Assembly (NCBI GenBank): GCA_000165425.1
Contig: CT868050.1
Coordinates: 124,001-188,000 of the forward strand
DNA: 64,000 nt
Origin: Paramecium tetraurelia
Lineage: Eukaryota
Reading direction: 5' to 3'
Part shown: piece by piece, positions 6,001-34,771 of the stretch
How positions within the stretch are numbered: the first letter of the stretch is position 1
How the letters are laid out: each line of letters starts with the position of its first letter
Position numbers and translations under genes: made by a program
Notes under the pieces: model-generated
What the model saw: the letters and a program-made list of their open reading frames with translations, nothing else
Databases searched by the model: none
Told to the model about the DNA's origin: nothing

Positions 6001-6841
6001 CATTGTGATAAACACATTTCTTATTATTGATGTCCAAAACACATCCTATTGCACTCCCAATATTTTTGCATTCCTTTTTGTCAATACAATGAACACCATT
6101 TGTAGTACACTTCGACATGTAAGAATTGCATTCAGCATAGGTCTTTAATCGCTTATTTTCACAATTCTTAGTAAAACACAATTATAATTCATCTTCCCAA
6201 AAGCACTCAGTTTTTTTATTATATGTAAAATAGCATTAGTTTTCGAAAGTGTATTGTTCACATTTGTTTTTTCCCTCCTCACATCCCAACCCCAAATCAT
6301 TTACTGTACATTATTACATTGCACTTCTGCAATCATAATCACTCATTAAATACTAGGGCAGTTAAGTGCATTGCTGTGCATCTTGGCATCTCGGATTTGC
6401 ATTTACATCCCAAAAACAATAATTTCCATTCACATTTTTATTTTGACACCCTACCTCTGTGTCATAATCCATACACACTCTCTTCTCTATACATTTTAAT
6501 CCGTCGGAAACGCATTTTAGTGAAGATTCTTAACATTAATTTTTTTAAAATAAACTACACTCTGTAAACCTTATGCACTCCCCCAAATAAAATCCACACA
6601 TATCCATTTATATGCAATCTTCCTGTATATACTTGTAACACTAATCTCCATCTTATTAACCCACCTATTGAATATAAGTTTCACCTGATCTTAAAATACA
6701 ATTTTCTCCGTTCCAAATACAGATCTAAGATCTCTAACATTCATCCTTATTGTCCACATGCCTGCAAACACAATATTGACTAATATATCTCATTTCAATT
6801 GATGAGATCATCAAAAATACCAAGTACTTATAGATTTTCAT
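1..6841 (-). CDS. Giant cysteine-rich surface membrane protein (signal peptide, many Paramecium surface-antigen-like Cys repeats, CGDG..CDDGN repeats, multi-pass TM region); 3' end outside window
   Basis: ATG at 6841 reads MKIYKYLVFLMISSIEMRYISQYCVCRHVDNKDECQRSQICIWNGENC. Periodic C..C.W repeats run to ~1500 and CGDG/CDDGN (DUF4215-like) repeats lie at ~1200-1470. The hydrophobic region IVIYTLITVACVAFISGNLEIFWNLIDTLQQLSYMKYLNLKFP is at ~420-540. The same frame holds at both ends; the middle was only spot-checked. Confidence 0.85.
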
Positions 6842-7250
6842 TATTATTTAAATGAAAAAATATTAAAATCAAATCTTGATTTCTTCTATAATTTTTATAA
6901 ATGATCATAATGACAGAATAGCGCAATTTAAATATTACATATCGATAATTGTGTCCAACAATTTATTTAATTAATTTATATTTACATGTTGTTAATGAAA
7001 AATTAAAATTCCCTCTTAAAAATGATAAGAAATGAACCATTTTAGAATTCATAAAAAATGAAAATCTAATTATAAGTTGAAACAACATTAAAGAGCAAAT
7101 AATGATATTTTATCCATTTAAATTATAATATATCATAAAATTCCTTTTCTTTAAACTAAATATATTCTAACGAATCAATAAGATTTCTTTTCTAACGACC
7201 AAGAATTGGTTAATATAATTAGTCTTAATTAATATAATTATTATATTTAG

Positions 7251-7280
7251 TAATAATAATAATAATAACTAATAATAATA
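7251..7280. repeat. (TAA)n microsatellite, intergenic
   Basis: taataataataataataactaataataata. Confidence 0.7.
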
Positions 7281-7421
7281 AATATAATTTTATTTATTCA
7301 TTAGTGTTATATTATGACAATTCTACAATTAGAAAAAAAAATTTGATTGATTATTTTGTGGAACATTATTTATTTGTTAAATTAAATAAAATATAAAATT
7401 CTTCATTTGAGCCCATTCCAA

Positions 7422-10400
7422 ATGCTTATGAATCCTTATCTAGGACAATTAATTTTATTTGTTACTTTCCTGAATGTAGATTCATTAGAATGCAACCCTT
7501 ATCCTATTTAACCTAATGAATTTTATTTTTCAAATTATTCTAAACATTTTATGGTTGAAAGTGACTCCAATGATCCTGATAGTATTGATGCTTTTGAATA
7601 CCCTTTAATTAAATAATTAAAAAAGGTCTAATATGATCAAAATGCTGAAATTATTTACACAATCGTTATTGATTCATGGAGGAGGTAAGAATTATTATTA
7701 GAAAAGCAATTTTGCTCTCTTTTCAAATAAGAAGGCTATTATATATCCTGTATTGCTATTGAAGGGCTATTTTAAGATGAAGGAGAAAGCTAAACTCAAA
7801 ATAATTCATAATTCTATTCATTTATTGAGCGCTTTAAAATGTCTATATTCACTTAATAAGATGAAAATTGTGAATTCTTATTTCAAAACAGCTCTTTAGG
7901 ATTATCACTTTTTTGCACTTAACTAAATAGCCTTAATATATACTTTATAAATTAGACTGGCTTAACATTTACTAAGTAAGACTACAAGATTGAATTAGCT
8001 TATGATCATTGTAAAACAAAGTATTTATCTTACTTTCAAAATTAATTACTATTGATATTTTATGACTGCTTAACTTGGGCCATCTATATTTTAAAAAATA
8101 ATCTCCTAAGTTTGATTTTTAATAGAGACATGGCGATTCAAAAGGATCCTTCATTTAATCTCAATGTGCTTGAAGATCTTTAAATTTGTTAGGATAATTT
8201 TATATTCATTGGAGATAATAAGTATTATTATTATTCTTATATATCAGAGAACAGATTAAATTATTAATTTGTTATGGAAGTCCCTTTTTTAAAATAGATA
8301 ATATTCGATTCAGAATGTCAAATGAAATATTATATAGCAGGATCTGAATTAATTAATCAATTTTACATTAGGAGTTATTAGCTCACTTATGAATTAGAAC
8401 GTATTTAAAAATATGTTTATTTGGTTTCAAATATGCTCTTTTTAATATCTGAAGATGAACTTAAGTAAGATTAAATGATAAATTCAAATAAAAAGTATAA
8501 TTTAAACCATTTCCATTACATTTTTTAAAAATAAATAATATCTTTTATCAAATCGATTCAGAAAGTAAGTTCTTTAGATTTTTTAAATATAAAATATTAA
8601 ATAATCCCATTATACAACCTAGGAAACAATTTTTACTAATATATCCTTATAGTTTTCATTTTATTAGACACTCTCCAGAATTTTGTGTTTAATTTTAAGT
8701 AAAGCCCTTAAATTACATAAATAATTACTTTTTCTCAATAAATTCTGAATGTGATAACATTTTCACAGTTTTAATAGAAAAAACATTTACACAAATACCA
8801 TATAATTATAAAATTTAAGTAGTATAAGACCAGCTAAATATAATTAAATTTGTCACAGATTAATAAAAATTGGAACAGCTTTGTCCCATTCCAAAATAGT
8901 TGCTGAAAAATTCTATATTGTTATATTTTCACTCCTTTGGTAGAGCTTACTCAATATTTTAAACATCAAAGGTTTTGTATATTTTCTTTTGCGATAACTA
9001 ATAATTAATTCAAATTAATATTTAAAATTAGATGGTACTAAATTATTACGATATTTTTATATTGATAAATTTGTAGACAAATTATTTTAGACTTTTAAAA
9101 ATTTACCATGATGTGCAAATGCAAAATTAATATACATTGGACGGGATTATTTAAGATGTTTACCATTATTCCAATTATATATTACTAATTACAAAATCAC
9201 AGAGTCTATTTTTGTTTGATTTAAACGCTGAACTATAAATATAATTACCATTGATATTAAATAATCTCTTTTTAAATATTTACTTATCAAATATCAATCA
9301 TAAGGATAAGGCTTAAAGATTTTGCATCTATATCAATAAAAATTTGTATTTTATTTAGTACTATGAAAATTGCATTATTTTAGACAATAATTCGCTTTAT
9401 TATTTCAAAGTAAAATAATTGTAAATTATATAAATCAGAAAAATGAATCATTAAAAAGATAGTTATCATATAGTTGCTGTAGATCTGACCTAGAATGCTC
9501 TCTAATAGTATTATTTTGATTTAATAGAATTAACCCTATTGGATAAATATGATTTTTAAAATTTCAAATTGATAAACCCACTCGCTTACTAGGAAGCCTA
9601 TGAATTTATTACAATTACTTCCAGTATGAATAATAACACCTATTTGCATATTTTTTAAACTTTAGGAACTTATCCATTCAAATTGAAATAAACTATTTAA
9701 ACTGGTTCACATCATACATTTGTGTCCTTCCAAAAATTATACTACTTTGATAAGAAAAATCAAATATAGGTATTAGATATAAAATATCTATTACTCAAAT
9801 TTAAACCTCTACTTACCAAATGGGACAATCTTAACTTAGAACAAACCTTAATTTTTTATATCACTCCCGAATCTAATAATGATACTAATATTCAAATTTC
9901 TTTGAACCTTTCTATTTTTGTTAATTGCACAATATTGATTCCACTTATTCGCGAACTCCCCATTATTCTGGAAGAGGATAATCAAATAATGCTAAATTTA
10001 AGTGATCTTTATGAAGGACCTATTTATAACCTAAAAATATAAGACAATTCAAATGTACTTTTGGAAGGACCATTTTTATAGTCTCCTTGGTAAGATGAAC
10101 TATCGAAATTCACATACACTATTAAGTAATTAAGTATTAAGGTTAGTTTAACTACGATATAATTATACTCTACCAATAGGTAGATCTTATAAATGTAAGT
10201 TTATGATGAATTCAATAAGTTTAATGAAATATGTGGGTTAATTTAATTGGCCTTTTATATCAGCAACAATTAAATCTTGTTAATTTACTTTCATGAAACT
10301 AAAACAATAGCTTCAATTTTTAGAATAAATTAAGATAATTTAACATTAATATAGGTCTCAGATGAATTTACTATTAAAAAACTTTATGAGGCAAAAGAAG

Positions 10401-11323
10401 TTAAATAAATTAAAAATCTATTTTTAGATAGATAAAATATATTATTTTATGTTCATAATGATACTATCTTAGACTTATAAAATAACAATCTTATAGGCAA
10501 TTTAATATTCATTTAAAATTCTGATGAGTTGTATTTATAATTGACAAAATCAGTTTATCCTTTTCTTAGAATTCAAATATTTATAATCGAATAGATGGAA
10601 TTAAAAATTTTTAATGAGTTAGCATTTAATTTGGACAAAATACAAAAAAATTTTACTAAATATATAAAGTAGAATAATAATTTTTATTCTTATAAATAAA
10701 TTTATCCCATAAACGCAACAATCAATAAGTAAACTCTTGATATCTAATGCCTTATGATACTTTAAGATTTCTGTATTCTTCAATTTATTCAGGTTCATTT
10801 AGTTAGTGGCGATTTTAATTTGAAGTTTTATAAACTATTAAGAATCTCTTATGACTTTGACTCTACATTACATTACATCGATGAAAACTTTATAATTATA
10901 AAGTAGAAGAATAGTTGTTTTGTTTATGACTTTAGAGTTTAAAAATAAATTTATGATTACACATTTATCTTTGAATGCAACCAGAACACAATATGGTAAT
11001 ATAATACTACGCATTATTTTATTTATTCTTAGATGAATAAGAACTTGACACTTGGGCAAATAGCTTATAGAATAAGCATTTTGGATGATAAAAAATAAAG
11101 TGAGACTTGCACTTTAATAGCAGAGAACAAAATATCTAAAGCAGAAATAACCTTAAAGATTAATAAGATTTCAAATAAAATTTCAATAGAAAAATTCCCT
11201 TATTTTGGATTAGTTTTTTTCATTTTAACAGTAATAATTTTGGTTATCTATTCTATTCGGAGATGTGTATTAAAATAATAATTAACATAACACAGGAGAG
11301 TATACTTATTTTTTGGTTAATGA
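7422..11323 (+). CDS. Large (~1300 aa) single-pass type I membrane protein with one frameshift near 8461
   Basis: Signal-like MLMNPYLGQLILFVTFLNVDS and C-terminal TM FPYFGLVFFILTVIILVIYSIRR, with TGA at 11321-11323. The reading frame changes once between ~8453 and ~8900 and no suitable tiny intron explains it. Confidence 0.7.
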
Positions 11324-11898
11324 TTTATTTGAATATTATTAATATTATTATATATAATTTACCCTATATAAATTTATTTAGAAATCAATATATAACTCAA
11401 CTTTAAAAATTGATTATATTTACTTGTTATTAATAATAGTGAAGTTTCCATTCTATTTTTCATTGATGATTTCTCTAATATTAAGTTTAAGTAGATGAAA
11501 AAAGAAATGAATTGAAGAACAATATTTATATCCCTTAATGATTATATCAGAAGCTATTTCATTTTAATATCTTCTCAGACTTGAAAATCTTAAGTGATAA
11601 ATTTCTCCTTAAGTAATCTATTTTTTGGAATAGTTGATATTAAAAACAAATTAAATTTGAATTACAAAAAATGATGGGTGTTAATTTTAATTAATTTAAT
11701 TCTAAAGGGAAAACTAATATCTTGAAATATTATCTAGTTAAGACTGATGATGAATTTTTAATTTAAATTTTGAATCCAAAACTAAGGTAATTATGTGTAT
11801 TAAGACAATTAAGATTGGTTTGATGATGAAAATTTATATTTTTAAAAATTTATTGTTGCGAATAAAAAATTTGTATTTAATTTATTATTTATTCAAAT

Positions 11899-13294
11899 AT
11901 GTAAAGTGAGAGAATAAAATCAAAAAAGAGAGTTAAGCATTACGAATTTCTATACGACTCTAAAATTGGTTCAGGTGCCTATGCTAATGTGTATATGGGG
12001 AGGGATATTTATAATGATTAAAGTAGTTAAATATGATAAAATAGCTGTGGCAATTAAAATTATTAGTAATAATTTAATTAAGAGTGATTACACATCTCAA
12101 TAAATAAAGAGGGAAGTTGAGATAATGAAATCATTTAATCATTAGAATATTGTGAAATTGTTGGATGTATTTCATAGCACAAACAATATATATATAGTGA
12201 CAGAATATTGTAATGGGGGAGACTTGAAAGCATACTTGGGATCAAGAACATTAAGTGAAGAGAGAGCCCTCTAAATATTTAAATAAATCTTGAATGGTTT
12301 GTAAGAATTATTAAGGAATGGAATAGTGCACCGAGATCTAAAGCCTGCAAATATTCTACTGCAGGATGGTATTTTCAAAATCACTGATTTTGGGTTTGCA
12401 AAACGAGTGCAAATGGACTCAACAATGTCATCACTTGTTGGAACCCCTTTGTATATGGCCCCTTAAATCTTAAAGCGATAGCCATATACAAGTAAATCAG
12501 ATATTTGGTCACTTGGGTTGATTTTGTATGAAATGATTTACAAAATAACTCCTTGGCATTCAACTAATGTGGTGGAATTATTGAACAGATTAGACAAAGA
12601 ACCATTGAAGTTTTCTTTTTAACCATAAATTGAATTACAAACAAGATAAATAATCATGGGCTGTTTAGGTAAGGAAGAGAAGGATAGATGGGGATGGGAT
12701 CAATTGATGAAAGCAGTTTAGGGGAATGAAAGACAATAGATGATGAACATATATCTAACTAAAGAATTGTATTATGTCACAAAGAAATAATAAATGCATA
12801 AGCAACAATCTTAATAGAACCTATAGGAATATTGTAGAACCAGTAGCACTTAATCATCCCCTATAAGATCAATCAGTACAAAGAGGACCAAAACAATTGC
12901 CAATGAGAACAACAGCAGTGTGTTGTTATCTGAATTAATAAAGAAAAAGCAATAAATTTATAAGATTTTTGAGTTGCTTGAGAAGTAGCTAGAGAAATTA
13001 CCAATAATCAAATTGGATCAATGCAGATAGTATCTCTAGGAACAGAGATCAAGATTGGTGTGTGCAAATATTGAATAGATTTACAATAAAGAAGATGAAA
13101 GGGAATTAATTTAGCAATAAAAGATTCTGCAATAATATTCTGCCAATTTCGGTGTTTAAATCATGATACTTCTCTTAAAGTGTTATCGTAAGATCATTAT
13201 AAATAATTATCAAACAGGCACTTTGATTTTGGATTTTGCTGATAGATAAACAATTGAGAATTGCTCTGTTTTAGTTTCAAATCAATACAAGTGA
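11899..13294 (+). CDS. Ser/Thr protein kinase (ULK/ATG1-like ciliate family)
   Basis: [42 protein letters not shown]; 22-nt intron 12023-12044. Confidence 0.92.
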
Positions 13295-13326
13295 TTATAG
13301 TATATTTATATATCATTTTAATTTTA

Positions 13327-14041
13327 ATGTCAACATCAAGATTAGCAATTAGATTATATACTTATAGAGGTTATTCAGCTCCCTGGAGAGTTAGCATTAT
13401 GCTTAAATTGAAGTAACTTCAATTCCAACCATTTTTTATAAACTTACCCAAAGCTGAGTAATTATCAAATATGTACTCTTAAATCAACCCACTCTAAGTA
13501 TTTGAAATATTACATATTAAAAGATTGTCCCTACTCTAGAAATTAATGGACAATTACTACATGAGAGTATGGCAATTGCAGAGTACCTAGAGGAAGAATT
13601 TCCAAGAAACAAACTACTTCCAAAATCTCCTCTAGAAAAAGCTATAGTTAGGTAATTCCAAGTATATCCTAAGATCTATGTGCGAAACAGTGAATAGTGG
13701 CATTCATCCATATCATGCATCTAGATTCTACAAGTATGTTCACAATTATGTGGCAGATATAAATAGATAAGAAATTTCAGAACCTTTCTTGGAGAGAGGT
13801 TTCACAGGTTTATTGAATATAATACATGATAGCATTAAACACTTTAGTGGAAAAACATGGAGGAGATTATGCCTTCGGAAACTAAGTGACAATTGCAGAT
13901 GCATTTTTGTACCCAGCATTTAGAGGAGATGATGTATCATATTTGGTCAATTTGGATAAATATCCAGCCCTTAAAAAAGTTGTTGAGAATTTGGATCAAC
14001 TGTCGGAATTTGCTTATGAACATCCAGATTCTCAAGGATGA
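13327..14041 (+). CDS. Glutathione S-transferase, zeta class / maleylacetoacetate isomerase-like
   Basis: LYTYRGYSAPWRV, INPLQ-IVPTL, ESMAIAEYLEE, VNSGIHP, TIADAFLYP; three tiny introns. Confidence 0.85.
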
Positions 14042-14434
14042 TATTATTAATATGAATAATTATTTATTACGATAGTAAGATATTTTTGAACTAATTAATT
14101 AAGATTAGTAGTCACAGTTTATCAAAGCTGTGTAAGCATTTCTGTTGATGTGTGTTCACTAAACCACATATTTGATATATTGTCATAGTTTAATTATACA
14201 AATTTTAAATAATATTGATTAAGTATTATATATCCAGATTTTTTTTTATGGAGATTTATTAATATCTATTAAATAATGCAGAGCTAGCTATACTGATAAA
14301 TCATCTCTGGTGTTCGGCAGGACTATCAGAATACACTTAAACTTAAATTGAGTAATTTATGAATCAGATAATATCAGTATCTTTTTGTATTTAATAATCA
14401 CAATTCTATGATAAAATAAGTTATTATAATATTT

Positions 14435-15558
14435 ATGTAATACAATCGTTTAGGAAACACAGGTTTATTAGTTTCTTAATTGGGATTTGGAAACATGGTC
14501 AACTTCTAACCTGAAGACGAAGAGATCAATGTAGCCATTATCAAGAGAGCATATGAGGCTGGAATCAATTTCTTTGATACTGCAGAATTGTTCTAAATTC
14601 CTATCTATTATTAGTTATCAACATGGAGAGGCTGAAAAGCAACTTGGTCGATCCATTAAAATACTTAATATTCCAAGAGAGAAATTAGTAATTACTACAA
14701 AAGTGTTTGGTAACTAAGCTCCTGGAGGTATCGATTATTTATAAGATTTAGGATTAAATGTGAATAGGATGTGTACATTAAGTAGAAAGCACATCATTGA
14801 AGCAGTTCATACTAGTCTCAAGAATCTTCAATTGGATTACGTAGATATAGTTTATGCTCATCAATTCGATTCTGAAACACCCATAGAGGAGATCGTCAGA
14901 GGATTCAATACAGTAATCGAGGATGGCAAAGCCTTCTATTGGGCTACCAGTAACTGGAATGCTGCTTAGATCCAAGAGGCAATCAATTATGCAGATTTAC
15001 ATGGATTGATTCGTCCAATAGCCGATCAAGGGGAATATCATATGTTGGAGAGAAAGAGATTTGAGTAAGAGTTCGTAGCATTGTATGAAAAACACAATTA
15101 TGGAACGACTATCTATAGTCCTTTGTGTGGAGGATTCTTGACTGGAAAGTATTTAGAGGGTGTTCCTGAAAATAGTAGATGTGGAAAAGATAATGGATGG
15201 TTGACTAAGGATAGAGCTGCAAATAGATTCTTATTGAAATATAGTATTAATAATTGATAGAGTAATAGCAAGTAATCCAAGATATGTCGAAGGATTGAAA
15301 TAGTTTGTAGCTTTGGCAAAGGAATTGTCAGTCACTCCAGCTTAATTGGCATTGGCATGGACTATGAGAAATAAGGATATTGATGTTGCCATTACAGGAG
15401 CAAGGACAGTAGCACAATTGGAAGAATCTTTGGGAAGCATTGAATTATTGAAGAAATTTGATAAAGATTTGGATGAGAAATTGGATAAGGTGTTTGAGAA
15501 TGCACCAAAATAAGAGTTGGAATTTAGAACAATGAAACCATTTCCAAATAGAAGATGA
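14435..15558 (+). CDS. Aldo-keto reductase (Kv-beta-related clade)
   Basis: [74 protein letters not shown]; three tiny introns. Confidence 0.92.
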
Positions 15559-20920: not shown

Positions 20921-21978
20921 TCATGCTAAGAGTCCTTTTCCTTCAGAATGCAACCAAGTGGGGAATGATGGTTTAACCTTCTTGACCTATGGTTGCTGAT
21001 TTCTTTTCAACCATATTGTGTAAGTTCAGATTTGAGTTGAGAAATCAAGGATGAATCGAATTTACTCAAGTCTCTATTGTTATTAATAGGCTTCAAGAGC
21101 ATAGAATCGTTGGAAATCAAATTTTTCACTAAATATTGAAACCGAATCATTACCCTTCCTTAACGATGGATCCAGGATAGAGGTCAATGAATCTGTTAAC
21201 ATTGACTTTCAAATTGTCTTCTGCCTTCTTCAGTAGCTAAAGGGATTGGAAAGATTGCATACTTAATTGAGCTTTGAATGGTTTTGGAATGTTGGCCAAT
21301 TCTTCCTTGGAGTATTCAAGACCCTTGTACATGACTTCGTTGTAAAAGTATCTGTCCCAAGAGTCGACTCTGAGGAGACCGAAAAAGAGGAACCACTCAA
21401 GAGGCAATAGTTTCTAAAGGATGGTTCCTCTTGCAGTAGGTGTCATATCGCTCATGTAGTTTTGATAGACATAATTGTCCCATTCATATATGTTTTAAAC
21501 GCTATCAGCCAATGTTCGCTCTCTTGCTTCTGCTTATAACCACTCTGGGGCTGTGGATCCTCTGACACCTCTTTCGACTTTTGAGAATCTTGCTCTTCTT
21601 TTATTGAAGAGAATCCAAGTGTAGGGATGGAATCCTTCTCTTTGGATATGTTCGAAGAGGGGATCTCTTCTTAATTCTCTATCTTAAAATAGGACTAAAT
21701 CTTCTAATGCCAATCCTCGATCCAAGCCAATGTTTCTCATCCATCGGTAGAGGAATCTTGTGTGATGAAGTGATCGTTGAGTACCTTGCAAATAAGGGTT
21801 CAACCATCTTGTAGATGAGACCAGTCCATCCTTAGGTGAATAATTTCATTGCTGATAGGGTCATGGCAGGTGTTCGTGGTTCTGAGTACCATTTCCTGGG
21901 AGACCCAATTATTCTTTGTCTATTGAGGGCACGTATGTTGACTAATTGTTCATAGACGAGTTTCTCTAGTCGAACCAT
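20921..21978 (-). CDS. Probable ciliate mitochondrial respiratory complex III subunit (QCR7/UQCRB-like core), frameshifted in this sequence
   Basis: MVRLEKLVYEQLVNIRALNRQRIIGSPRKWY...FLYRWMRNIGLDRGLALEDLVLFQDRELRR; recalled resemblance to a Tetrahymena complex III subunit (not searched). Three introns and four single-base insertions at 20991-21209. Confidence 0.6.
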
Positions 21979-22019
21979 GGATGTAAATTAAATCTTTTTT
22001 TATTTATATTTACTAATAA

Positions 22020-25000
22020 ATGGACTAAGAAGCATTAATGCAAATGCTCCAAACGTTGATGAAGGATCAAGGGGAAATTAAAATTGGGAATTTTGTTATT
22101 TAACAATAAGAACCAAAAAGAAATAACACCACTTTGATTCCACATAACAAGGCCGATGTTCCGCAATTCAGCAAAAGCTAATAAGATATAGATTACATAA
22201 TAACTAAACCGAATGAGTTTGTCAATGATCTGTTCTTCGATGAACCACTGCCGGATTTGGATTAATTCATCGAACAGGAGGTTGTGTCCAATTTTACAAT
22301 CGATTCATAAACAAAGCCCAACAATGTTTAAAAATAGTTGTTCTCTAAAACCTATTAGATGATAGACAAATTCAGTCCAAACCTCAAGGAAGAATTCGAA
22401 AGTGCATTGGAGTATGATTTTGAATAATTGCTCAAACCCAAAACCTCCGAATGTTCCTCTGACACTATGACTACCATTACAGATACTACCTCCAGTGACC
22501 CTTTAAGGACCTTCCTCATGTCTTTGATTCCAATAAAATCTTCCCTCTCTCCCACAAAATAAACTTAGATCGATTTCTTATTTTTGTACTCCCAACCTCT
22601 GCTCCAAATCACCAACAATTCGACCAAGAAAGCTGTGCAGAAATTGGAGATAAACAAGGAGTTGAATTCAATCAAAGAAGTATTTATAGATGTCAAAGCA
22701 GAAATCAAATTTATGTCAACTCCAGCGAGAATGGATAGATTTGGAGAAGCCCTGGATTTGAATCCTAAAGCCTTGCATTACGCAGGTCATGGAATCTACA
22801 TGGAATCAAATCAACAATCATACCTCCTCTTTGAGTAATTACATGGAGTAGCCTAATTAGTTTCAGCAAATCAAATTCTCTTATGCCTCCAAAAACTCAA
22901 ATCTCCAATCCTATTTGTATTTGTAGCCAGTTGTCATTCCAAACTCATAGGCGAAGTCTTTCATCAAGCTGGAGCTGAACATGTGATCTGTGTCCACTCC
23001 AAAGAACAGATAATGGATGAAGCCTGTTGTGTCTTCGGCCAGATCCTTCTATCACGGCTTAATCAAAGGACAATAGACCGTCTGTTAAGCCTTTCTAACT
23101 GCCAAAAACTAAGTCAAAGTTGAAGGGAGATTCCCATATGCCGAAGAAAACAAATTCCTTCTGCTTACTAAGACAACTCATCAATGCTCCACTTGGCTAT
23201 TGCGAGAAGGGGAGTTTAAAGATCTCACTCCTCAACAGAACTAAAACAATCTGCCTTCTCTTGTCCCCAATTTCACTGGCAGAACTCAATAGATGTAAGA
23301 AGTCATGGACAAAATCATTTAAAATTAACTTATCAATATCAAAGGAGTGTTGGGAGTAGGCAAAAGTGCTTTGATAAAGGAAATCAGTATTTACATAGCT
23401 TAAAGAAACATTTTCAAAAATGGAGTTGTCTACTTATAACTCAATTAATGTGATAGTTTTGATAGTGTAACTAGTAGATTTGCTCAAATCTTTATGCCCA
23501 ATCTAACATTGCAAAGTAATTATGAAATCAAATAATTGATGGTCACTCAAATCATATAAACTATTAAAAATCAAGAATTCCTCCTCATTCTGGATAATTG
23601 TGATTTGATTATGCATTCCAATGACCGCGATGTCTTTGTTGACTTTCTTGAATTACTCCTAGCCAATTGTAAATGTCATCTATGTATCACAAATAGAAGT
23701 GAAATCCTTCAATAAGGAAGAGTAATCAAAATTGAAGGTTTACCCCAAGAAGAAAGTGCTCAACTATTCATTAATTCATCTTCAAGAGAAATTACCATTC
23801 AAGAAGTTGAGGAATTATTAGGTTGTAATGATCTTCTGAATAGATATACTTGGAATGATAAATTATTGATCTAGAAATTCTCCAATCATGCCCTATTCCA
23901 AATTCTGGATGGACATCCTTAAGGTATCATACTATCATCAGGTCTACTCGAGAATTACACTCTAAAAGAATTATACTAACAATTATCCTACAAATAATTG
24001 ATGGATTTGCCTATTTCAAGTAGGGTAACTGAAGAGGAAAGGAGATCACTTAGAGTGTCATTGAATTTAAGTTGGGGGAACTTAGTGGAAAGATATGAAA
24101 AGGCTGCCATCTTTTTTGGGATGTTAGGATTACTGCCATGTGGTATTTACAATGATGAATTAAATGATGTTTGGGGGCCAGGATGGGAAAAATTGGCAAC
24201 TCAATTGATTAAGAGTTCCTTATTGTTGTCTACTAAGAAAAATACAAAAACACATTATTGCTTATACAATTTTACTGTTAAGTTTGCAGAAAGTAAATTG
24301 GATTCTAAATAGAAAAGATTGTATCATCATAATATTGTTAAATTATTACTAAAAAAGTCATTGACATATTACACTCAAATAGGTACTTAAGCACATGATA
24401 TTAATAATCAACCAAATGATGATTTCTTGGCAATTGAATAAAATATCAAGAGTGCTATTTTTAGAGAATTTGAAATCATATCAAATGGTTAATTCGAAAT
24501 TGAACCCTAAAAACAAGAAAATAAGGATTAGGAAAATGATGATGAAACATTCAATCTGCCTTTGACCAAAGAAAACTTAGAGATGATGCAAAAGAAATAT
24601 GAAAACAATAGTTAAAAATCTCATCTAAGTTCCAAAGTAGGTTTCACTGGTTCTGTTATATCCAGCTTTAAATATGATTAAATCTCTGATGATTATATGA
24701 CTAATGCTCCAAAACGAAAATCTTTTTCTATCGCTAAGGTTGGGGTCACAATTAGTGAGGAGGATGAATTATAATCGAATAAAGATTATTCAGATAATGG
24801 TATGAGTATTAATTATGTGGAATCAAAACTTTTTAAGATCAACTCCAACAATGTCAAGCATGAACTCATTGATGATTCTAGCAATCCCTAGGAATGCCAA
24901 ACCTAATCATAATTTTAATAGTCATCAATTCCTCAAGCTATTCAGAGTGATTAAACCCAGGTACAAAAGATTGTCGATCCAAAATTTATTAAATCCTCTC

Positions 25001-26184
25001 CTAATCCTAATCCATTAACTCAAAGAGTTACTTTTCTTGATTAACAAATTAAGCCTCTTGCCCAGGATATGAAAAAATAGAAACTTGAGGAGGATGAAAA
25101 GCAACATCAACCTCTATCTAAGCGATAAGCAATTTCTAAGAAGGGAGATAGAGCGAAATCTGGTAAGGCCAAAGAAGAACCGACTTTATCTGCCTAATAA
25201 CCAAATAAAAAGGATAAAATATAAAAACTGATCCTGTATTATTGTTAAATTTTGTTGCTTCAAAGAAGGTACAACGAATGTCTAAAATTTATTAACTGGT
25301 CTTATTAATACTTTTATGGAGATTTATTATTCACTGCTAATATAATCAAAACAAAGGCATGTGTATATTATATGCTTAAGGAACCCAAAAAATCGTAATA
25401 AGCATTCAAGTAAGCAAAGGAGATGTTCATTAAAAAGGGTTGTACTCTAGGTGTTGCATGTTGTGAAGCTGCTAGTGGTTACATTTCCTTATAAGAACGA
25501 AGTTTGCTTTAAGCCAAAGTTAATTTTGAAAATGCACTTTAATTTTATGAGTAATTGAATCATGATTTTGGAAAACACTTCTTAAATAGATGGCTGCTCT
25601 TAGTTAAAAATAAAATTTCAAGTCTCAAGAATGATAGAGCCAAACATATTCAATAAGAAAAGATGTTGATTGAAAATCTTAAACAAGAATTCAAAAAGGG
25701 AATTAAAGTAGACAATCTCATTTAAAAAAAACACAAGGGAGGAGTCTTCATTTTAAGATGGCTAGGCGATACGTTATCTATTTTCATTGAAATTGCTACA
25801 GTTGAAGATTCTAAATAGAAGGATATTATGAGCATTTTGAGAGTTGTTGAATAGAATCCAATTACAAACTATAAAAGAAATTCAAAAAAATCAGATGAAA
25901 TAGAAATCAGACCCACAACTGTGAGTAATGCTAAACCAACTAGTTCAAGCAGCAGCACTGCAACTCTGAAAAGGTTTAATAAAGTATAGAAACCACCTCC
26001 TAATAGCAAATATTTAAATGAAATAGCAGAAAATGTATAACAAGAAGAAGATCCTACAAATACATCCTTATAACAATTATAGAAATAATAATAACAATAG
26101 TAGTAACCTTAAAAACCGTTTATAAAAAAGAATGCTCAATTATAAATGATGCCTTGCCAAAAAAAAACTACCAAAAATTAATGA
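22020..26184 (+). CDS. CHAT (caspase-like) protease - STAND/NB-ARC ATPase - TPR protein (NLR-like), ~1387 aa
   Basis: LHYAGHG (His 22788-22790), FVFVASCHS (Cys 22932-22934), FTGR, Walker A GVLGVGKS (23344-23367), Walker B LLILDNCD (23581-23604), ITNR, LDGHP, winged helix, and TPR-like helices at ~25225-25610. One extra G at 23037-23038; otherwise intronless. Confidence 0.85.
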
Positions 26185-26200
26185 TCAATTTAAAAAAAAC

Positions 26201-28462
26201 TCAATTATTAGATATATGCATCATGCCCTATTTAATTAATTCTCTCTCTGCTTTCACATATCCAAACAATGCCGATAATACTTATAAGGGTTCTACAGAA
26301 AATCTTATAACTATAAAATATCACTTAATACCTCTGTAAATACTTTTTATATTCTATTTCCTTAACGACTCTCTACAATTCCAAATCTTCGAATTTCTTA
26401 AACAAACCCTCTTTGATTTCAATGTCTTTTTAGATTTATTAGTATTCTCTTATTAATTTTTCTTTGTCTTCTGAAATAAAAGATTACTCTAGGATGACAC
26501 TGGCTTCAGTTTTGAACATTTTTTATATTTTCTTCTGTGCTTCAGTATATATTATATCATTCAAAGTTTATTTACTTTAGAAAATCTACGTAAGAGTTCC
26601 TTGTATGCTCTGTTTTTCATCTCTATTCAATCCTTTAAGTAATAGATTGATTTCTCCACTTGATTTCATTCTCCTATCTCTTAAAGTCTTTCTCTTAATG
26701 TCTTCTGAATCAATTTACGAAAAATGATTTTTAGATAAAATGGATAATATCGAATTGTTTAAATTATCTTATGAGGTTTCTAACCTTCCATGATAACTTC
26801 CAAAAAGTTGATGAGCTCTTATAAACAACTCATTCAATTCAATCATTTTTTTGGCTTTCTAAATTAAAAATTCTCTTCCTTTAGAATCTAAATAAGAAGG
26901 GAAATTATCATCAGATAATTTTTCATTTGTATCCCAAACAGCCTTTACAATCCAGCATAAACCTTATTTTCTACAATCGAGACCAATTTTAAGTAATTCC
27001 AATAGAAATCCTTGAATAGATTTTAATAATTCTTTATTATTTTTGTTTAATTTAGAATTTTCAGTCTCTAATTTTTCAATCTATTTGAAATTGAGCTTAA
27101 TTTGCAATTTGTATTTTTTGTAACTATCTTTCATAGTTTCTAATTGAGTTTCTATTTCATTCTGTTTTCCAACTGTGGCCATGTAAAAATCAACATTAGA
27201 AGACTTCTAAGACTTTTACACTTATGAGTTATTGTTGCTACCAACCTTGCCAAGTTCTTCTTTCAATTATTTTTATAAATCCTCAATGGATCTTAGTCTA
27301 TTGTATATTTCATGATTCTCCATCCTTAAAGTCTCAAGATCACGATCATTTTTATTGACTATTTTTTTTTGTTTCTCCAATTTGGCATTGATCTATTGTA
27401 AAATTGAATTGGTCTATTTTTCATAAAACACAGCTCTCTCATTTGCATTTAAGAAATTAGTCAATTGCATCTTGATCCTTGTATGCAAACTATTCTTCAA
27501 ACCCTCAACAGTGTAATCAAAGATCAAAGTGTCAGTTTGCTTTTCTTCATGCGATTATTTTTGCCTTGCCTATTCTATATTAATTAGTTCTTATGAAGTG
27601 AGGGTAGATCCTTATTAAAGATACTTATCCAATTATTTGACTAGACCCATGTCTTGATGCAACAATTCTGCCTTCTTTAAATTAGATAACTTGGCCAATG
27701 ATCCTTTGACTTTAGCTTAGAATAGATTTTGATTTTCAGTTTATGGAGATTTATCATCGGAGGATTGAGATTGCATCAATTTGGGGAATGCTGGCAGGAT
27801 AGTGGTGCCAGTCCTTTTATCTACAGCTCCTCTTCTAAATGAGGAGATCGATACTGTCTTTTAGAGCTGGGCTATTACCTACTCTATATTAAAACGAATC
27901 GTAAATACTTTCTTTCTCTATCTCCAATTATTTCTTCTCGAACTCTTACTACTTCTTGACCTTCACTTGCTTCCACCATTAATCGAGATTGGCCACCATC
28001 AAGTCATCACTTTCAGGCTTATACTATCTATTTCCCTTAAATTGTTCTTCCTTATGAAGCACAGGTTTCACTTACTAAGTGTTCTCGTCTTCATCTAATT
28101 TTTCATAACTAAAATCAATATGGAGGTTACATTTCTTAAAGTAGCAATTTACCACCAGGTTCATTCACTAACTTACTCCGCAAATTCGACTCCAAATCTG
28201 AGCGTTTTACTTTTTTATGTAGCTTAATGGGTTTCTTTGTGAGATCCTTTGGATTAGTGGTTACAATTTCATTCTAAATATAAATCTGCAATACCATATC
28301 TGGTTGTATAATATCATAGAATTAGATGGAATTCATCTCATCATTCAAGATTTTTTTTTTCATGTCATTCAACACTAACTACTCAATTTAATAATGATTT
28401 TGAGGTCGCACTTTATACTACAGAATCTCTGGAGCTGACTAAGAATTTTGCTTTTTAGACAT
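26201..28462 (-). CDS. Ciliate-family coiled-coil protein of unknown function
   Basis: Open frame with 3 tiny introns; block LLKIGLDCRKQGLCWIVKAVW...FPSYLD; C-terminus FSVEPLQVLSALFGYVKAERE. Confidence 0.75.
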
Positions 28463-30323: not shown

Positions 30324-33300
30324 TCATAATACAGTTTTGGATCTTCTTCTTTTGAGCAAAAAGCTAAATAAAATAATCTCACAAACTATAATGATACATA
30401 ATTAGATTTAAAAAATATTTTCTTCATTCTCATTCTTTAAATCAATTTAAAATTCAAGTTGGGATAGCGAATTTTTAAAAGTCAAGTTAAATGATTTGGT
30501 TTAGTATTGATCAATTTTAATCTTATATGAATCAACTTAATAAACTGTATGATCTTAAGAATCATCATCTTCTACCACTATTAAGTGAGATTCATTATAT
30601 TTATGAACCAAGGAAATATTTTTACTTAAGATATATATCTCATTTATCAAATTGAATTCACTTATATTATACACATTAATCCTTTAAGAGTGATTCTTAA
30701 TATCATTATATGAAATAATTAATATTTAATTGTTTTACATTAATAAAATTTGTTAATTCATTGTAGTTGCAGAAACTCTTATTAATCCATTTCTCTCGAT
30801 AGTCGTACTTTCATTGTTAAAGCTTAACTCCAATACTTAAATGAAAGTTGGTCTTGAAAATAGAATTATTTGAGCATAATATTAATTATCATCTTTCTAT
30901 TCCATGAATAAAATTTCAAATTTACTTTAGAACGCTACAGAATCATAAATAAATTCATTTATAGGTACGATTACTTAAAAATGCACTTGATTAACAATAT
31001 CATATATGATAAATTCAATTGTTTCATTTTATATTATCCTTTCATGAATAGCAACAAAATTTGAATTAACTATTTAATTTACTTGGCAATAGTTACAATC
31101 ATATGAGTTTATTAAAGTAAGTGTATTATTTTGAATTTCATAAAAGGAAAGTAACAATTAGAAACTAATTACGCAATATTAATTAGCTATTGAAATATTG
31201 ATTATATAATGCCTTTCATCGTGGATCAATGTAAAATTAGCAATACTCTCTAAATTAGTCTTTAAATACAATTCGACGAATTAATCGCTTCCTTGCTGAT
31301 ACCACACTATAAAATAAAGTTCTGAACTAATTGTTCTAAAGTCAATTTTTTATTGTAAATCAAACGCTTTATAATATGATGGAGCTCCATATATATTAGA
31401 GATAGTTAGTGATTAATTATTTTCATTAATACAAACAGCATTATCAACCCTTTTGCATTTCCTCCTTTTAATAGAATCAATTTAAACCAATGGAAATACT
31501 AACTCATATGCGTTTATGGATATAGTTTCAATAGGTCCAATAACAAATCTTCTTGGATCAAATAAAATAAATTGCTAAAATATATGATATTGGAATTGCT
31601 AAACTTCAGTGGAAATAGATTTTAGTTACTGGAAACCATTTATTAGTTTAAACTAAATATAATGTAATTGAGAATGATTTTGATCGAGTTTATCAATAAG
31701 CAGAATAGGCGCATTAATTTGTTTTATAAAATCAGTAAAAATATTTATTCTACATTATAGAGATATTTCTAAAATTGTTAATCTTTTCAATTATTGCTAT
31801 TGGAAGAAAAATATTTCATTATATGATGCCTATGTGAAAGTAAAATTGTCAACTTTGATAATATCAATTAAATTGCTCCTATATAAATGTGTGAGGCTAT
31901 ATACAGCGAGTACTGAATTATTTTAAGAATCAAAAGCAGCAATTATAAGAAAAAAACTATTTATGCTATGCTTCAACGGGTAAGCGTAATTTAAATTTTC
32001 ATTGAATATTTATGTTATGGGAATCAATTGGAAATTAAAATACGAATAAAGAATAGCGAGAGTTTTATTTCCTATGGTTGAAATCACTAAAAATGAATTT
32101 TTATTAAAGTAAAATTAATGCAAACTATGAATAGTTTGGTTTTAATATCTAATAGTATTTGTAAGATTTTCGCTTTTGAAAATGAAAACTTGACGTGAAA
32201 AATCTATCTCCAAAAAGTCTGAATAAATTATCCTCTCTTAAATACATTAGCCATTTGAATTTAATTTATAGATTTATTATTCAATAATCTTTTCATTGGA
32301 TAATATTAAATAACTCACACAAGATTTTAAAACGATTTAATGACCAAGGTTTTGATAACTAATGTTAATGACTTCATCTTTAAATTCATAGATACCTTTC
32401 CATAAAGTAGGTCTTCTCAAATTTAACCTTAAAACTTTCTTCCTTTAATTAGTCAACAGAAAGACATCACTGTTAAATACATAAACATTTTCTTTTTCGA
32501 TTTCTCCAAAATACCCTAAATTAAGATTTGTATTTTAGTAGCACATTATTACTATTATTTATAAACTTTATTTTAGTTAAATAACTTTTACAACCTAGCG
32601 ATTCTAAAATACATCAACCTGCCATAAAATCTCGAGTTTTTATTCATTTAAACAATCTTGCATAACCTCATATTATTATTCTTCACAATAAATAGCATCA
32701 TTTTTTAAGAATTAGATATTAAATGGCAGAAAATCACTTTTGAATTCTTACGGCTAAAAAGTAAACTAAAAACTTTCTTCTTCAATTACCTTTTTGATAG
32801 ATAGGAGTCGTAATCCATACATCGAAAAATCGTTAAATATTATTTCCATTTAAAGAAATTCAGCGTTTTAAAATAAATTGCTTGAGGCCAAATCTACAAG
32901 TGTTTAATTTGAATAATCGTTGCAATTAAAAAAGGGAGAATACTCATTTTTCTTAAAGACAATAAATTGATTATTTTATTTACCTATAAAAAATGGATAA
33001 AATGAAATGGTTTGAATTGATTATAATTAAACCTGGAATATATATATCATATCTTCTCTAACAATGCATTCAAGATGTGATTCACTAATTAAAACAATGG
33101 AATCTGAAAACATTAGAATTTATCTAGGTTTTATATATTTTGTAATTATTATGAACGTACTTAAATTTTGCTCAACCATTCTTTAAATGCTACTTTTCTA
33201 TTCATAAATTGATTGTAAAACAATTACTTATCTTCCAAGCTTAATTTCGAAATCTAAAATTGTAGATTCATAATTTTAATAGATCTTATTGTAAGTCTAC

Positions 33301-34085
33301 CCCTAAAATGAAACAATCCAATGATCAAATTGGAAAAAGTAATTATTATCAAAAGTAACTTTCCTTAATATTAGTTAGTCAATAAAATAGTGATTGTTTA
33401 CAAACAATCTAAAATTTAGAGCACCATCATTGTTAAATTCTATCATAAATATTTCCCAATTCAAACAATTCAAAAATATAACTAAGAATTAAGAAGAATT
33501 TTCATTAAAATATACATCAAATTAGCATTTTGACTATTTTTTTACATCAAAGGACTATTGTATTTGAACTGTTGATTCATTAATTTTGATTATGTTAATT
33601 TAATAATTCTCAATTTATTCGCAACAAATAATGAACTTTTATTTAATTAGATAATAGACATGAGTGATCTTATCACAATTTTCAATATTAAATTTTAGTG
33701 AATAGATTAACTCCATTTGAACATTATACTCCTTAGAATCAAAAATGCTTAACCTTAGCTCCTTCATTTACAATAAATAACGTTTTTCTCTTTGATAAAT
33801 TTAAATTAATCTATATTCCTAAATGCTTGAGAAAATTAATATATAATCATCTTCCTATAACAATTCTTCATCAAAAGAAATAATTTATTCTAAAAATTAT
33901 GGATTTTCTTTATATACATAATCAGATTTCTCATTACTTTAAAAAATTATAGGAAAGAATTTAGTTTAGAATTCTTGAATCTAATTTTTATTGCAAAAAA
34001 CCTTCGGTTTATCACAGCTAATTTCAGGCAACATTAGTAGAGTAAGAAGATAAGGAGTGATAAATTAGAGAATAATCGATTTCAT
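30324..34085 (-). CDS. Large (~1250 aa) single-pass type I membrane protein
   Basis: Signal-like MKSIILQFITPYLLTLLMLPEISC and C-terminal TM LCIIIVCEIILFSFLL followed by KRRR; length 3762 nt in one frame (ends checked, middle spot-checked). Confidence 0.7.
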
Positions 34086-34771
34086 AAATTAATATTATTT
34101 TAAATATAAATAATATCGCTATGAATTTACATCAATTTAAAAAAAATCATTCAAATATTCTAATCACTATTCAATTATTAAATCTACGTATATCCACAAA
34201 CATGATCTTATTTTGTACAAGGAAACTCTTTAATTAAAAATATGCTTCATTAATATATTTATTATTGACTATGATTTAAAAGCAAAATTAATTAATGTTG
34301 CACTTTTTATAGAAAATTTTAATTAAAAGGAATTAATATCAAATTAATTTATGGGCATATTTGGTTAATAATATGAATCCTGAATTTGAGCTATTTTAAT
34401 TCTATTTTTATATATGTTTAATATTCTGAATAGAATTTAGTTGGCAGAAAACTCTATTAATATTAACGGTAATATGTCTATAATATTAAACATTTAATCA
34501 TTATTAAACTGAGGAAAGCATATGTGTTATTAAACTAATATAATTTAACAAAATTTGAATTTTATTAATTACTCAAATCTTTTAATAATAACTGTATATA
34601 TTCATTTAAAAGTATTTCTTTTTTATGAATACTTTTCCAAACTTATTACAATATATAAAATACTAGTTAATTGAAAATTTAATTCCCAAAAAACTTATAT
34701 TAATTAAGTATAATATTGACAAAGGAAATGATAATTATTTTAAAAACTAATTTTAATCTCTCAATAAAATC

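Follow-up and report, generated by a model that had tools for sequence, protein, structure and literature searches.

A 64,000-nucleotide stretch of Paramecium tetraurelia DNA (contig CT868050.1, positions 124,001 to 188,000 of the forward strand; hereafter the window) carries, at 22020..26184 on the + strand, a real transcribed gene for one large protein, in which a caspase-like protease is joined to an Apaf-1-type switch and a small repeat sensor. This architecture, a CHAT domain followed by an NB-ARC-type STAND module and C-terminal tetratricopeptide repeat (TPR)-like helices, had been claimed in an earlier note made on the window from its letters alone, and it is supported here by profile matches, conserved motifs and two structural models. 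We consider it moderately probable that the product is a conserved all-in-one signaling protease, nucleotide-switched and oligomerizing, which would probably act, much as Apaf-1 does, as a switch in stress, death or development.

The design itself is already known from bacteria and fungi, and orthologs of the protein have been auto-annotated with CHAT and NACHT/NB-ARC domains. New are a ciliate lineage of the CHAT-NB-ARC-TPR design and its particular features, namely an N-terminal extension, a long linker, a short conserved sensor and the loss of the MHD His.

Reading frame, surplus base and transcription

With TAA and TAG read as Gln (translation table 6), two overlapping open reading frames (ORFs) lie on the + strand, at 21981..23123 (380 residues) and 22990..26184 (1064 residues). 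The first stops in the middle of the CHAT domain and the second opens with the remainder of that domain. When one base is skipped at 23037-23040, they join into a single protein of 1387 residues that begins with the ATG at 22020 and is terminated by the TGA at 26182-26184, which confirms the claim of one frame of about this length and shows it to be broken only by one extra base. For the read-through, the four bases GGCC at 23037 were taken as one step, that is, one base was dropped, GGCC being unique there. A script counted 63 TAA and 17 TAG codons in the frame after removal of the base, and the sole TGA was the terminal one. When the whole window was shuffled 30 times, the longest TGA-free run averaged 460 codons and never went beyond 635, short of the 1064-codon ORF; the longest TGA-free run of the actual window, 2289 codons, belongs to a different gene.

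The whole coding region (22020..26184, +) comprises 1387 codons and the TGA, with one surplus base at 23037, and orthologs of 1383-1390 residues align with the 1387-residue protein from end to end. No splice joints were present in the RNA reads across the gene, which, together with the agreement in length with the orthologs, indicates that the gene has no introns. Two residues that the earlier note had named as catalytic were placed exactly, the His codon CAT at 22788-22790 and the Cys codon TGT at 22932-22934, and every one of its listed motifs (LPSLVPNFTGR, GVLGVGKS, LLILDNCD, ITNR, LDGHP and SLRVSLNLSW) occurs in the read-through translation. The gene is less hidden than had been supposed, as intact orthologs already bear the automatic name 'CHAT domain-containing protein'. 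Bacterial contamination was rejected as a source of the gene in view of its 80 in-frame TAA/TAG codons, a surface-antigen gene in the window and orthologs in six other Paramecium species.

The surplus base lies at 23037..23038 (+), where the window has GG and relatives and other read sets show a single G, causing an apparent frameshift. Over the break, every full-length relative gives ..EACCVFARSFYH.., equal to the window translation minus one G of 23037-23038; the orthologs read ..CCVFARSFYH.. at the break, with F-A-R-S-F-Y at the site of the surplus base. Without the read-through, the Pfam CHAT match scores 24.2 bits (cut-off 24) and ends at the break, indicating that the break interrupts a continuous domain. 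Four public runs (X1, X8, X21 and X22) were placed on 21700-26500 at a likeness of at least 97%. A 2009-nucleotide (nt) contig from run X1 (2013) equals the window bar one gap at base 23037, and a 930-nt contig from run X8 (2021, a different study) equals it bar a gap at 23037. The identity over 2009 and 930 nt excludes the second P. tetraurelia copy of the gene (its ohnolog) as the source of these contigs. Base 23037 is also missing from 1 of 2 raw RNA reads in X21 and 2 of 3 in X22 (3 of 5 together); it counts against these reads that they are few and 58 nt long, and that some could derive from the ohnolog.

Since the orthologs read through the site and the contigs of two independent runs lack the base, the frameshift is most likely a fault or minor variant of the reference in an otherwise intact macronuclear gene. 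The repair proposed in the earlier note, dropping one G at 23037-23038, agrees with the same orthologs and contigs. That note had named reads confirming the extra G and a lack of transcripts as what would speak against it; what was found is contigs without the base and strand-specific RNA reads over the gene. Public P. tetraurelia gene models on one 221-kb contig split at the same place, into a 308-residue 'CHAT domain-containing protein' and a 1055-residue product, suggesting that the surplus base has long been part of the reference. The annotation can be corrected accordingly, the two models being most likely one 1387-residue gene split by a single-base fault. The last ~37 residues of the 308-residue model (P0011) depart from the window frame and resemble the product of a spurious intron call coping with the frameshift. 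An intron in place of the frameshift was itself considered and rejected, as no GT..AG pair of fitting length and phase is present, the orthologs are collinear, the reads show a 1-base gap and there is no joint.

Alternatively, the frameshift might be genuine in the strain and the window copy a young pseudogene, a decaying duplicate of which only the other ohnolog works. The extra G in the window, the break of the public models at the same site and the 2 of 5 raw RNA reads that do not show the deletion would all fit such decay. These two reads carry little weight, because reads ending near the site can align ungapped, and the contigs, from separate studies and years, match the locus over their whole lengths except for the missing base. 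Moreover, just 8 residues are unique to the window copy in comparison with 8 other aurelia-complex sequences, all of them conservative and one of them an artefact of the read-through, and no further frame breaks or stops were found in the window copy. We therefore regard a decaying duplicate as very improbable.

Two of the runs, X21 and X22, are oligo-dT, paired RNA runs. RNA depth over the gene was 0.35-5.6 in X21 and 0.29-10.1 in X22 in 27 of 28 bins, one bin being 0 in X21. All RNA pairs over the gene have the first mate on the minus strand, and the upstream neighbor has only pairs of the opposite orientation, at a depth of 85-145. The low depth and the single mate orientation, opposite to that of the neighbor, fit a + strand transcript of low abundance. 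At 22727, G>A was seen in 5 of 9 RNA reads of X21 and 2 of 5 of X22 and not in the X1 and X8 contigs; it could be ohnolog cross-mapping, a variant or editing.

Domain architecture and structural models

The CHAT (caspase-like) protease domain occupies approximately residues 181-397 (22560..23211, +). On the read-through protein, Pfam CHAT (PF12770) scores 32.9 bits (cut-off 24, E 6.2e-8), and the scores of orthologs are similar at 38.6 bits in P. bursaria and 37.3 bits in Stylonychia. CHAT catalytic motifs are G-H-G and S/A-C, following two core strands. The putative catalytic His257 (22788..22790, +) stands in the motif HYAGHG and the putative catalytic Cys305 (22932..22934, +) in the motif FVASCHS. 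Conservation was assessed in two five-row family alignments, A1 and A2, the latter covering the CHAT and NTPase region over 671 positions, and in a 48-row alignment, A3. As the earlier note would require of a working protease, both residues are conserved in orthologs: neither varies among the five rows of A1 or the five of A2, and each is found in at least 90% of the 48 A3 rows. In a bacterial member, HFSGHG and SSC stand at the aligned places. A profile of the family matches the SAVED-CHAT structure 8tl0 over its CHAT part at E 2.8e-6. In a structural model of the ohnolog, described below, residues 6-222 adopt a caspase-like alpha/beta fold that superposes on 8tl0_A with Z 25.1 and a root-mean-square deviation (rmsd) of 2.0 over 192 residues. 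From sequence and model, the domain with its His257/Cys305 dyad is thus predicted to be a caspase-fold cysteine protease.

The CHAT domain is followed by an NB-ARC-type STAND NTPase at approximately residues 404-825 (23230..24495, +), comprising a nucleotide-binding domain (NBD), a helical domain (HD1), a winged-helix domain (WHD) and following helices, as recognized by Pfam, by matches in the PDB and in the model. Pfam scores were 29.7 bits for NACHT (cut-off 26.7), 27.6 for NB-ARC (cut-off 23.5) and 26.6 for nSTAND1, slightly below its cut-off of 27.1. The Walker A motif or P-loop, GVLGVGKS (residues 442-449, 23344..23367, +), keeps its three Gly and its Lys unchanged throughout the 48 rows of A3. 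In the Walker B motif, LLILDNCD (residues 521-528, 23581..23604, +), neither D525 nor N526 varies in A1 or A2, and the Asp is kept in at least 90% of the A3 rows. The sensor-1 Arg lies in ITNR in Paramecium, against an A3 consensus of TSR, and two of the five A2 rows lack it or have it at a shifted position. In the helical domain, the GxP motif reads GHPQ (residues 631-634, 23911..23922, +) and does not vary in A1; its Pro is kept in every row of A2 and in at least 90% of those of A3, whose consensus is GHP. Apaf-1 has GSPL at the aligned position. Searched against the PDB, the family profile found Apaf-1 as its best sequence match (E 1.2e-8), with weak matches to NRC1 (E 7.9e-4) and ADR1 (E 2.7e-3); the C-terminal ORF piece alone gave only a weak ADR1 match (E 0.028).

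An AlphaFold2 model of the CHAT and NTPase domains was built from the 48-row alignment, headed by residues 176-825 of the ohnolog, and reached a predicted local distance difference test score (pLDDT) of 90.7 and a predicted template modeling score of 0.90. In a Foldseek search of the PDB with this model, Apaf-1 ranked first (3sfz, E 1.3e-10), followed by CED-4, SAVED-CHAT 8tl0_A (E 8.2e-9) and plant resistosomes. A second structural aligner placed Apaf-1 3sfz on the model with Z 27.0 and rmsd 3.9 over 354 residues; further values were Z 23.5 for the NB-ARC domain of NRC1 (8bv0), 23.3 for the archaeal STAND-TPR protein 6mfv, 22.6 for resting NRC2 (8rfh), 22.1 for MalT, 21.6 for ADP-bound Apaf-1 (1z6t), 16.0 for the CHAT protease DdvA (8rw5), and 15.5 and 14.9 for the NACHT proteins NLRC4 and NLRP3, respectively. 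By these Z values, the NBD-HD1-WHD fold is nearer to AP-ATPases than to NACHT proteins, a choice on which Pfam alone is indecisive, both families being over their cut-offs. Monomeric ADP-bound, resting or inhibited forms fit the whole module at rmsd 3.4-4.2 (3sfz, 1z6t, 8bv0 and 8rfh), whereas several assembled oligomers fit at rmsd 11-15.7 (8jo0, 8jns, 8jol and 9cc8) or over the nucleotide-binding part only, suggesting that the model represents a closed state.

The remaining parts of the protein differ strongly in their conservation. The N-terminal region (residues 1-175, 22020..22544, +) has no Pfam match and is conserved within Paramecium only, with an identity of 93-99% in the aurelia complex; the N-termini of relatives in other ciliates are different. 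A low-complexity linker of ~235 residues rich in Q, N, K, S and E (residues 826-1060, 24496..25200, +) follows the NTPase, has no domain match and is presumably disordered, judging from its composition. It is among the least conserved parts, at 83-96% within the aurelia complex.

The linker leads to a TPR-like helical-repeat domain of eight antiparallel helices (25201..25695, +), identified from a model and Foldseek together with a Pfam TPR_12 match of 15.8 bits, below the cut-off of 30.1. Thus, of the profile matches anticipated in the earlier note, CHAT and NB-ARC (and also NACHT) came out above their cut-offs and TPR did not. The C-terminal model, of 241 residues (window 25183-25905) from a 19-row alignment, has an overall pLDDT of 77; values reach 85-96 over the helices from H7-26 to H128-144, after which comes a helix H146-171. 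The leading Foldseek matches in the PDB were TPR-type helical-repeat proteins (LGN, BtubC, Rap, NASP and KLC) or uncharacterized helical-repeat proteins, at E 1.5e-3 or weaker and with a query TM-score (TMq) of 0.51-0.57 over the first ten rows. Neighbors of the domain in Atlas feature space were TPR clusters at 0.93-0.94, which serves as a lead only. From the models, the domain would consist of about four divergent TPR-like repeats, for which 'TPR-like' is a fair description and 'TPR' is not proven. Beyond it, the C-terminal tail (25696..26181, +) has a short conserved stretch (..KKHKGGVFILRWLGDT..) and then a low-complexity end, mostly with pLDDT <60. No Pfam leucine-rich repeat (LRR) profile matched the read-through protein, so that it falls outside the strict definition of an NLR as a nucleotide-binding oligomerization domain (NOD) plus LRR; the term 'NLR-like' used in the earlier note describes its tripartite logic only.

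The ciliate family and its bacterial relatives

The nearest proteins, in one 90% cluster, come from P. primaurelia, P. sonneborni, P. pentaurelia, P. octaurelia and P. tetraurelia, and a relative in P. bursaria is 63% identical over the searched region. Two copies of 1385-1390 residues each were found in P. primaurelia, P. pentaurelia, P. octaurelia and P. tetraurelia, and one copy in P. sonneborni. The second P. tetraurelia copy is intact, 1385 residues long and 93% identical to the window copy. The window gene is one of two whole-genome-duplication copies, derived from one pre-duplication gene in Paramecium. Its closest protein is a P. octaurelia ortholog of 1387 residues, with 94-100% identity per domain. 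Identity to P. bursaria is 49% in the N-terminal region, 65% in CHAT, 61% in NB-ARC, 32% in the linker, 70% in the TPR-like domain and 24% in the tail. In the aurelia complex, the TPR-like domain is 98-99% identical; by these comparisons, the presumed sensor appears to be the most constrained part of the protein.

Further relatives are found in spirotrichs. In a family profile search, Stylonychia lemnae P0017 (1764 residues) is 30% identical in a 709-column BLASTP alignment over CHAT and NTPase, and named paralogs number at least four in Stylonychia and at least three in Euplotes. Another Stylonychia lemnae protein, P0049 (1551 residues), is named 'SH2 domain containing protein' by its source, a name that suggests differing N-terminal adaptor domains in ciliate members. 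No Tetrahymena member is among the named matches, although these searches cannot show absence.

A profile of A2 run against 1.84 billion cluster representatives gave 53,716 matches at E <= 1e-3, 14,021 at <= 1e-10 and 679 at <= 1e-30. Among the best 150, many span most of the profile in one stretch and others are single-domain or fragmentary. Twenty matches were examined, of which 8 are in named clusters: three from Euplotes (Moneuplotes) crassus, two further ones from Stylonychia, one EukProt entry and two bacterial proteins from metagenome-assembled genomes (MAGs; Thermoanaerobaculia and Clostridiales), both called tetratricopeptide repeat proteins. A pattern search of genome contigs with A2 returned 13 matches, none of them a relative. 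In the search with the 48-member family, bacterial CHAT+STAND+TPR proteins named from Oscillochloris and Phaeodactylibacter appeared, together with many bacterial proteins having a similar NTPase-TPR body and other heads (adenylate cyclase, SARP, XRE and TIR). Two Mycena STAND proteins were among the distant matches, with no CHAT in their listed Pfam domains.

For a tree, 65 of 161 domain-match sequences were kept, those whose best match spanned the profile from position 40 or before to position 560 or beyond, by which the Oscillochloris and Phaeodactylibacter proteins were dropped. In this quick, unrooted IQ-TREE analysis, in which the ohnolog represented the window copy, 52 rows are unnamed and several branches are long. 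All 10 named ciliate rows and the EukProt row fell into one 29-row clade (Shimodaira-Hasegawa-like approximate likelihood ratio test, SH-aLRT, 100), and both named bacterial rows into a separate 28-row clade (SH-aLRT 99). The tree thus shows a distinct clade holding the ciliate rows, as far as the aligned sequences go, and not the direction of any transfer.

The bacterial CHAT-STAND-TPR proteins (Phaeodactylibacter xiamenensis, Oscillochloris sp. and the MAGs) resemble the Paramecium protein in domain order and are collinear with it through CHAT and NTPase. Against the ciliate profile, the relatives P0084 and P0139 score 272 bits (over positions 8-634) and 212 bits, respectively, and the Phaeodactylibacter CHAT-NACHT-TPR protein aligns by hhalign with a probability of 96.6% and E 6.9e-10 over 354 columns, the His, Cys and P-loop residues being aligned. 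The bacterial proteins have long canonical TPR arrays straight after the NTPase (TPR_12 228 bits in the homolog at locus L001, below), in contrast to the 175-residue N-terminal extension, the ~235-residue linker and the roughly four divergent TPR-like repeats of the Paramecium protein, and well-supported branches of the unrooted tree separate the named ciliate rows from the two named bacterial ones. The Aravind group's comparative genomics has reportedly described bacterial proteins that combine CHAT or caspase domains with STAND and TPR.

A contig search with the bacterial member found 5 loci, of which one, L001 of Phaeodactylibacter xiamenensis (3609-15545), was examined. There, the CHAT-NACHT-TPR homolog (6001-9549) is flanked by a Septu pair, PtuA (4274-5548, E 1.7e-132) and PtuB (3609-4277, E 1.7e-69), and by a type IIG restriction-modification enzyme (13404-15545, E 2.2e-204), with three matchless ORFs in between. 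This looks like a defense-island setting; it is a single locus and speaks about the bacterial family, not directly about Paramecium. Among PADLOC models, the Phaeodactylibacter relative matched only the generic TPR, PDC-S39 and SAVED_CHAT models, and the read-through protein of Paramecium matched 0 families at E <= 0.1, so that no match to Avs or another anti-phage STAND system of PADLOC came up.

Compared with well-studied systems, the Paramecium protein can be aligned with Apaf-1, which belongs like CED-4 to the AP-ATPase or NB-ARC clade of STAND proteins, at the P-loop, Walker B, the GxP motif and the winged helix. Apaf-1 relies on CARD domains to recruit its caspase and on WD40 repeats to sense cytochrome c; the Paramecium protein instead carries the protease in the same chain and has a TPR-like sensor. 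The CHAT fold of the model is shared with SAVED-CHAT (8tl0) and DdvA (8rw5). SAVED-CHAT is turned on by filament formation of its SAVED sensor, according to the title of its PDB entry, whereas the regulator in Paramecium is a STAND NTPase. Craspase is a TPR-CHAT system. Plant NLRs (NRC1, NRC2, ZAR1 and Sr35) have the NB-ARC fold in common with the Paramecium model, but they bear LRR sensors and CC or TIR heads and an MHD His that Paramecium has not kept. Fungal protease-headed NLRs (a CHAT or S8 head, a NOD, and WD40, TPR or ANK repeats) carry an N-terminal protease on an NLR-like protein, as in Paramecium. Passages of PMC12881547 describe CHAT- or S8-headed fungal NLRs as controlling gasdermins and a TPR-bearing CHAT protease of Podospora as activating a gasdermin. 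Different from these fungal systems, no gasdermin-like neighbor was recognizable among the ten flanking ORFs searched at the Paramecium locus. More generally, protease-headed STAND proteins are death or immunity switches in bacteria and fungi, and animals and plants divide the same protease-switch logic among several proteins.

Among the top-ranked results of a literature search on ciliate CHAT, STAND, NB-ARC, NACHT and gasdermin proteins, no paper described such a protein, and a full-text search found four gene identifiers of the family in no paper. In line with the earlier note, a characterized ciliate system of this kind was thus not found among these results. The words 'CHAT', 'caspase' and 'apoptosis' do not occur in the main text of the paper on the Oxytricha genome, nor does 'NB-ARC' in that of Klim et al. 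2018 (PMC5982838), who surveyed P. tetraurelia and T. thermophila for apoptosis factors.

Proposed function and neighboring genes

By analogy with Apaf-1/CED-4, plant NLRs, MalT and bacterial STAND proteins, the switch might work as follows. The protein would rest as a closed, ADP-bound monomer; perception of a cue by the C-terminal TPR-like region would release the closed state; ATP binding would then drive oligomerization through the NB-ARC module; and the clustered, fused CHAT domains would be activated by proximity to cleave one or more downstream substrates. The description in the earlier note of a 'ligand-triggered oligomerizing protease' may be called a reasonable inference from what is known of the family. 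Immune receptors chasing variable ligands usually have fast-evolving sensors. Because the sensor is the most conserved domain and Paramecium has a single pre-duplication gene, we favor a conserved cue, probably endogenous or generic, over a diversifying pathogen ligand.

Several points weigh against this reading. The first model depicts the ohnolog, which is 95-96% identical in these domains (93% overall), and not the window copy, and AlphaFold may favor closed forms simply through its training data. In Walker B, the sequence is D-N and not D-D/E, the second acidic residue being replaced by Asn. The His of the Apaf-1 LHD and plant MHD motifs, which holds ADP in the resting state, is lost, L-H-D of Apaf-1 being aligned with l-n-r in the family profile and with L-Y-N in Paramecium, so that details of the switch may differ. 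The TPR assignment comes from a model with a shallow alignment and from Foldseek matches no better than E 1.5e-3. In addition, Pfam searches of ten flanking ORFs revealed one protein kinase and nine ORFs without a match, with no gasdermin-like or other effector neighbor.

Two other roles were weighed against a conserved stress, death or developmental switch. One is that of an innate-immune receptor, in which the TPR region would recognize a product of a bacterial symbiont, pathogen or virus and the protease would trigger defense or abortive death, like bacterial STAND systems and CHAT-headed fungal NLRs. Collinear bacterial relatives exist, one of which sits in a defense-island setting with Septu and type IIG genes; CHAT- or S8-headed fungal NLRs control gasdermins, according to passages of PMC12881547; and several paralogs in spirotrichs (at least four named in Stylonychia and at least three in Euplotes) are typical of immune receptor families. 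Paramecium, however, has one gene per pre-duplication genome, and its putative sensor evolves most slowly, with 98-99% identity across the aurelia species, which is the opposite of the usual pattern in pathogen receptors. Moreover, the protein has no PADLOC match at E <= 0.1, and the defense-island context comes from a single locus. Such a receptor role is therefore judged unlikely.

The other is that of a developmental switch supplying caspase-like activity for the destruction of the old macronucleus at autogamy or conjugation. It would suit a caspase-fold protease joined to an Apaf-1-like module, and a conserved sensor and a low copy number would befit a housekeeping developmental role. Also in its favor is the statement of a Tetrahymena paper (PMC2829475) that, true caspases being absent, the source of caspase-like activities in protists is still unidentified. 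Against it, the gene is already transcribed at a low level in the RNA runs examined, and the named matches include no Tetrahymena member, although absence cannot be shown by these searches; we regard it as quite improbable. In our ranking, a conserved stress, death or developmental switch thus comes before an infection sensor, and an infection sensor before programmed death of the old macronucleus. A bolder idea, which we hold to be distinctly unlikely, is that of a fused 'one-chain apoptosome', an Apaf-1-like NB-ARC switch in one chain with a caspase-fold CHAT protease, that would have been kept since before the split of oligohymenophoreans and spirotrichs and would be kin to the bacterial design. 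Its single conserved gene in Paramecium would be the source of regulated caspase-like proteolysis in the death of ciliate cells or the programmed death of their nuclei, and the spirotrich paralogs would perhaps form an immune-type repertoire.

As a conserved, low-copy ciliate version of the design, the protein is a candidate protease for pathways of stress, death or nuclear elimination in which proteolysis is regulated. RNA interference by feeding works in Paramecium, which makes this candidate genetically tractable.

Downstream of the gene, a 546-residue ORF without a Pfam match (26136-27776, -) is convergent with it, its 3' end overlapping the end of the CHAT gene by ~49 nt. Farther along, a 1276-residue ORF (30324-34154, -), also without a Pfam match, shows by eye a hydrophobic stretch at the N-terminus and a membrane-like segment at the C-terminus. 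The upstream neighbor (21147-21998, -), which has no Pfam match, has RNA 20-50x stronger than the CHAT gene. Loose read ends at 21758 and 21788 match across a gap of ~28 nt there, suggesting a tiny intron at ~21757-21787, and T>C at 21799 and T>A at 21853 were seen in about half of the X21 and a quarter to a third of the X22 RNA reads. A protein kinase gene lies at 11981-13294 (+; Pkinase, 215.5 bits). At the start of the window, an ORF at 2-6841 (-) that runs off its edge encodes 2280 residues rich in Cys, with 11 Paramecium surface antigen repeats (PF01508, 334 bits) and DUF4215, and is a surface-antigen-type gene.

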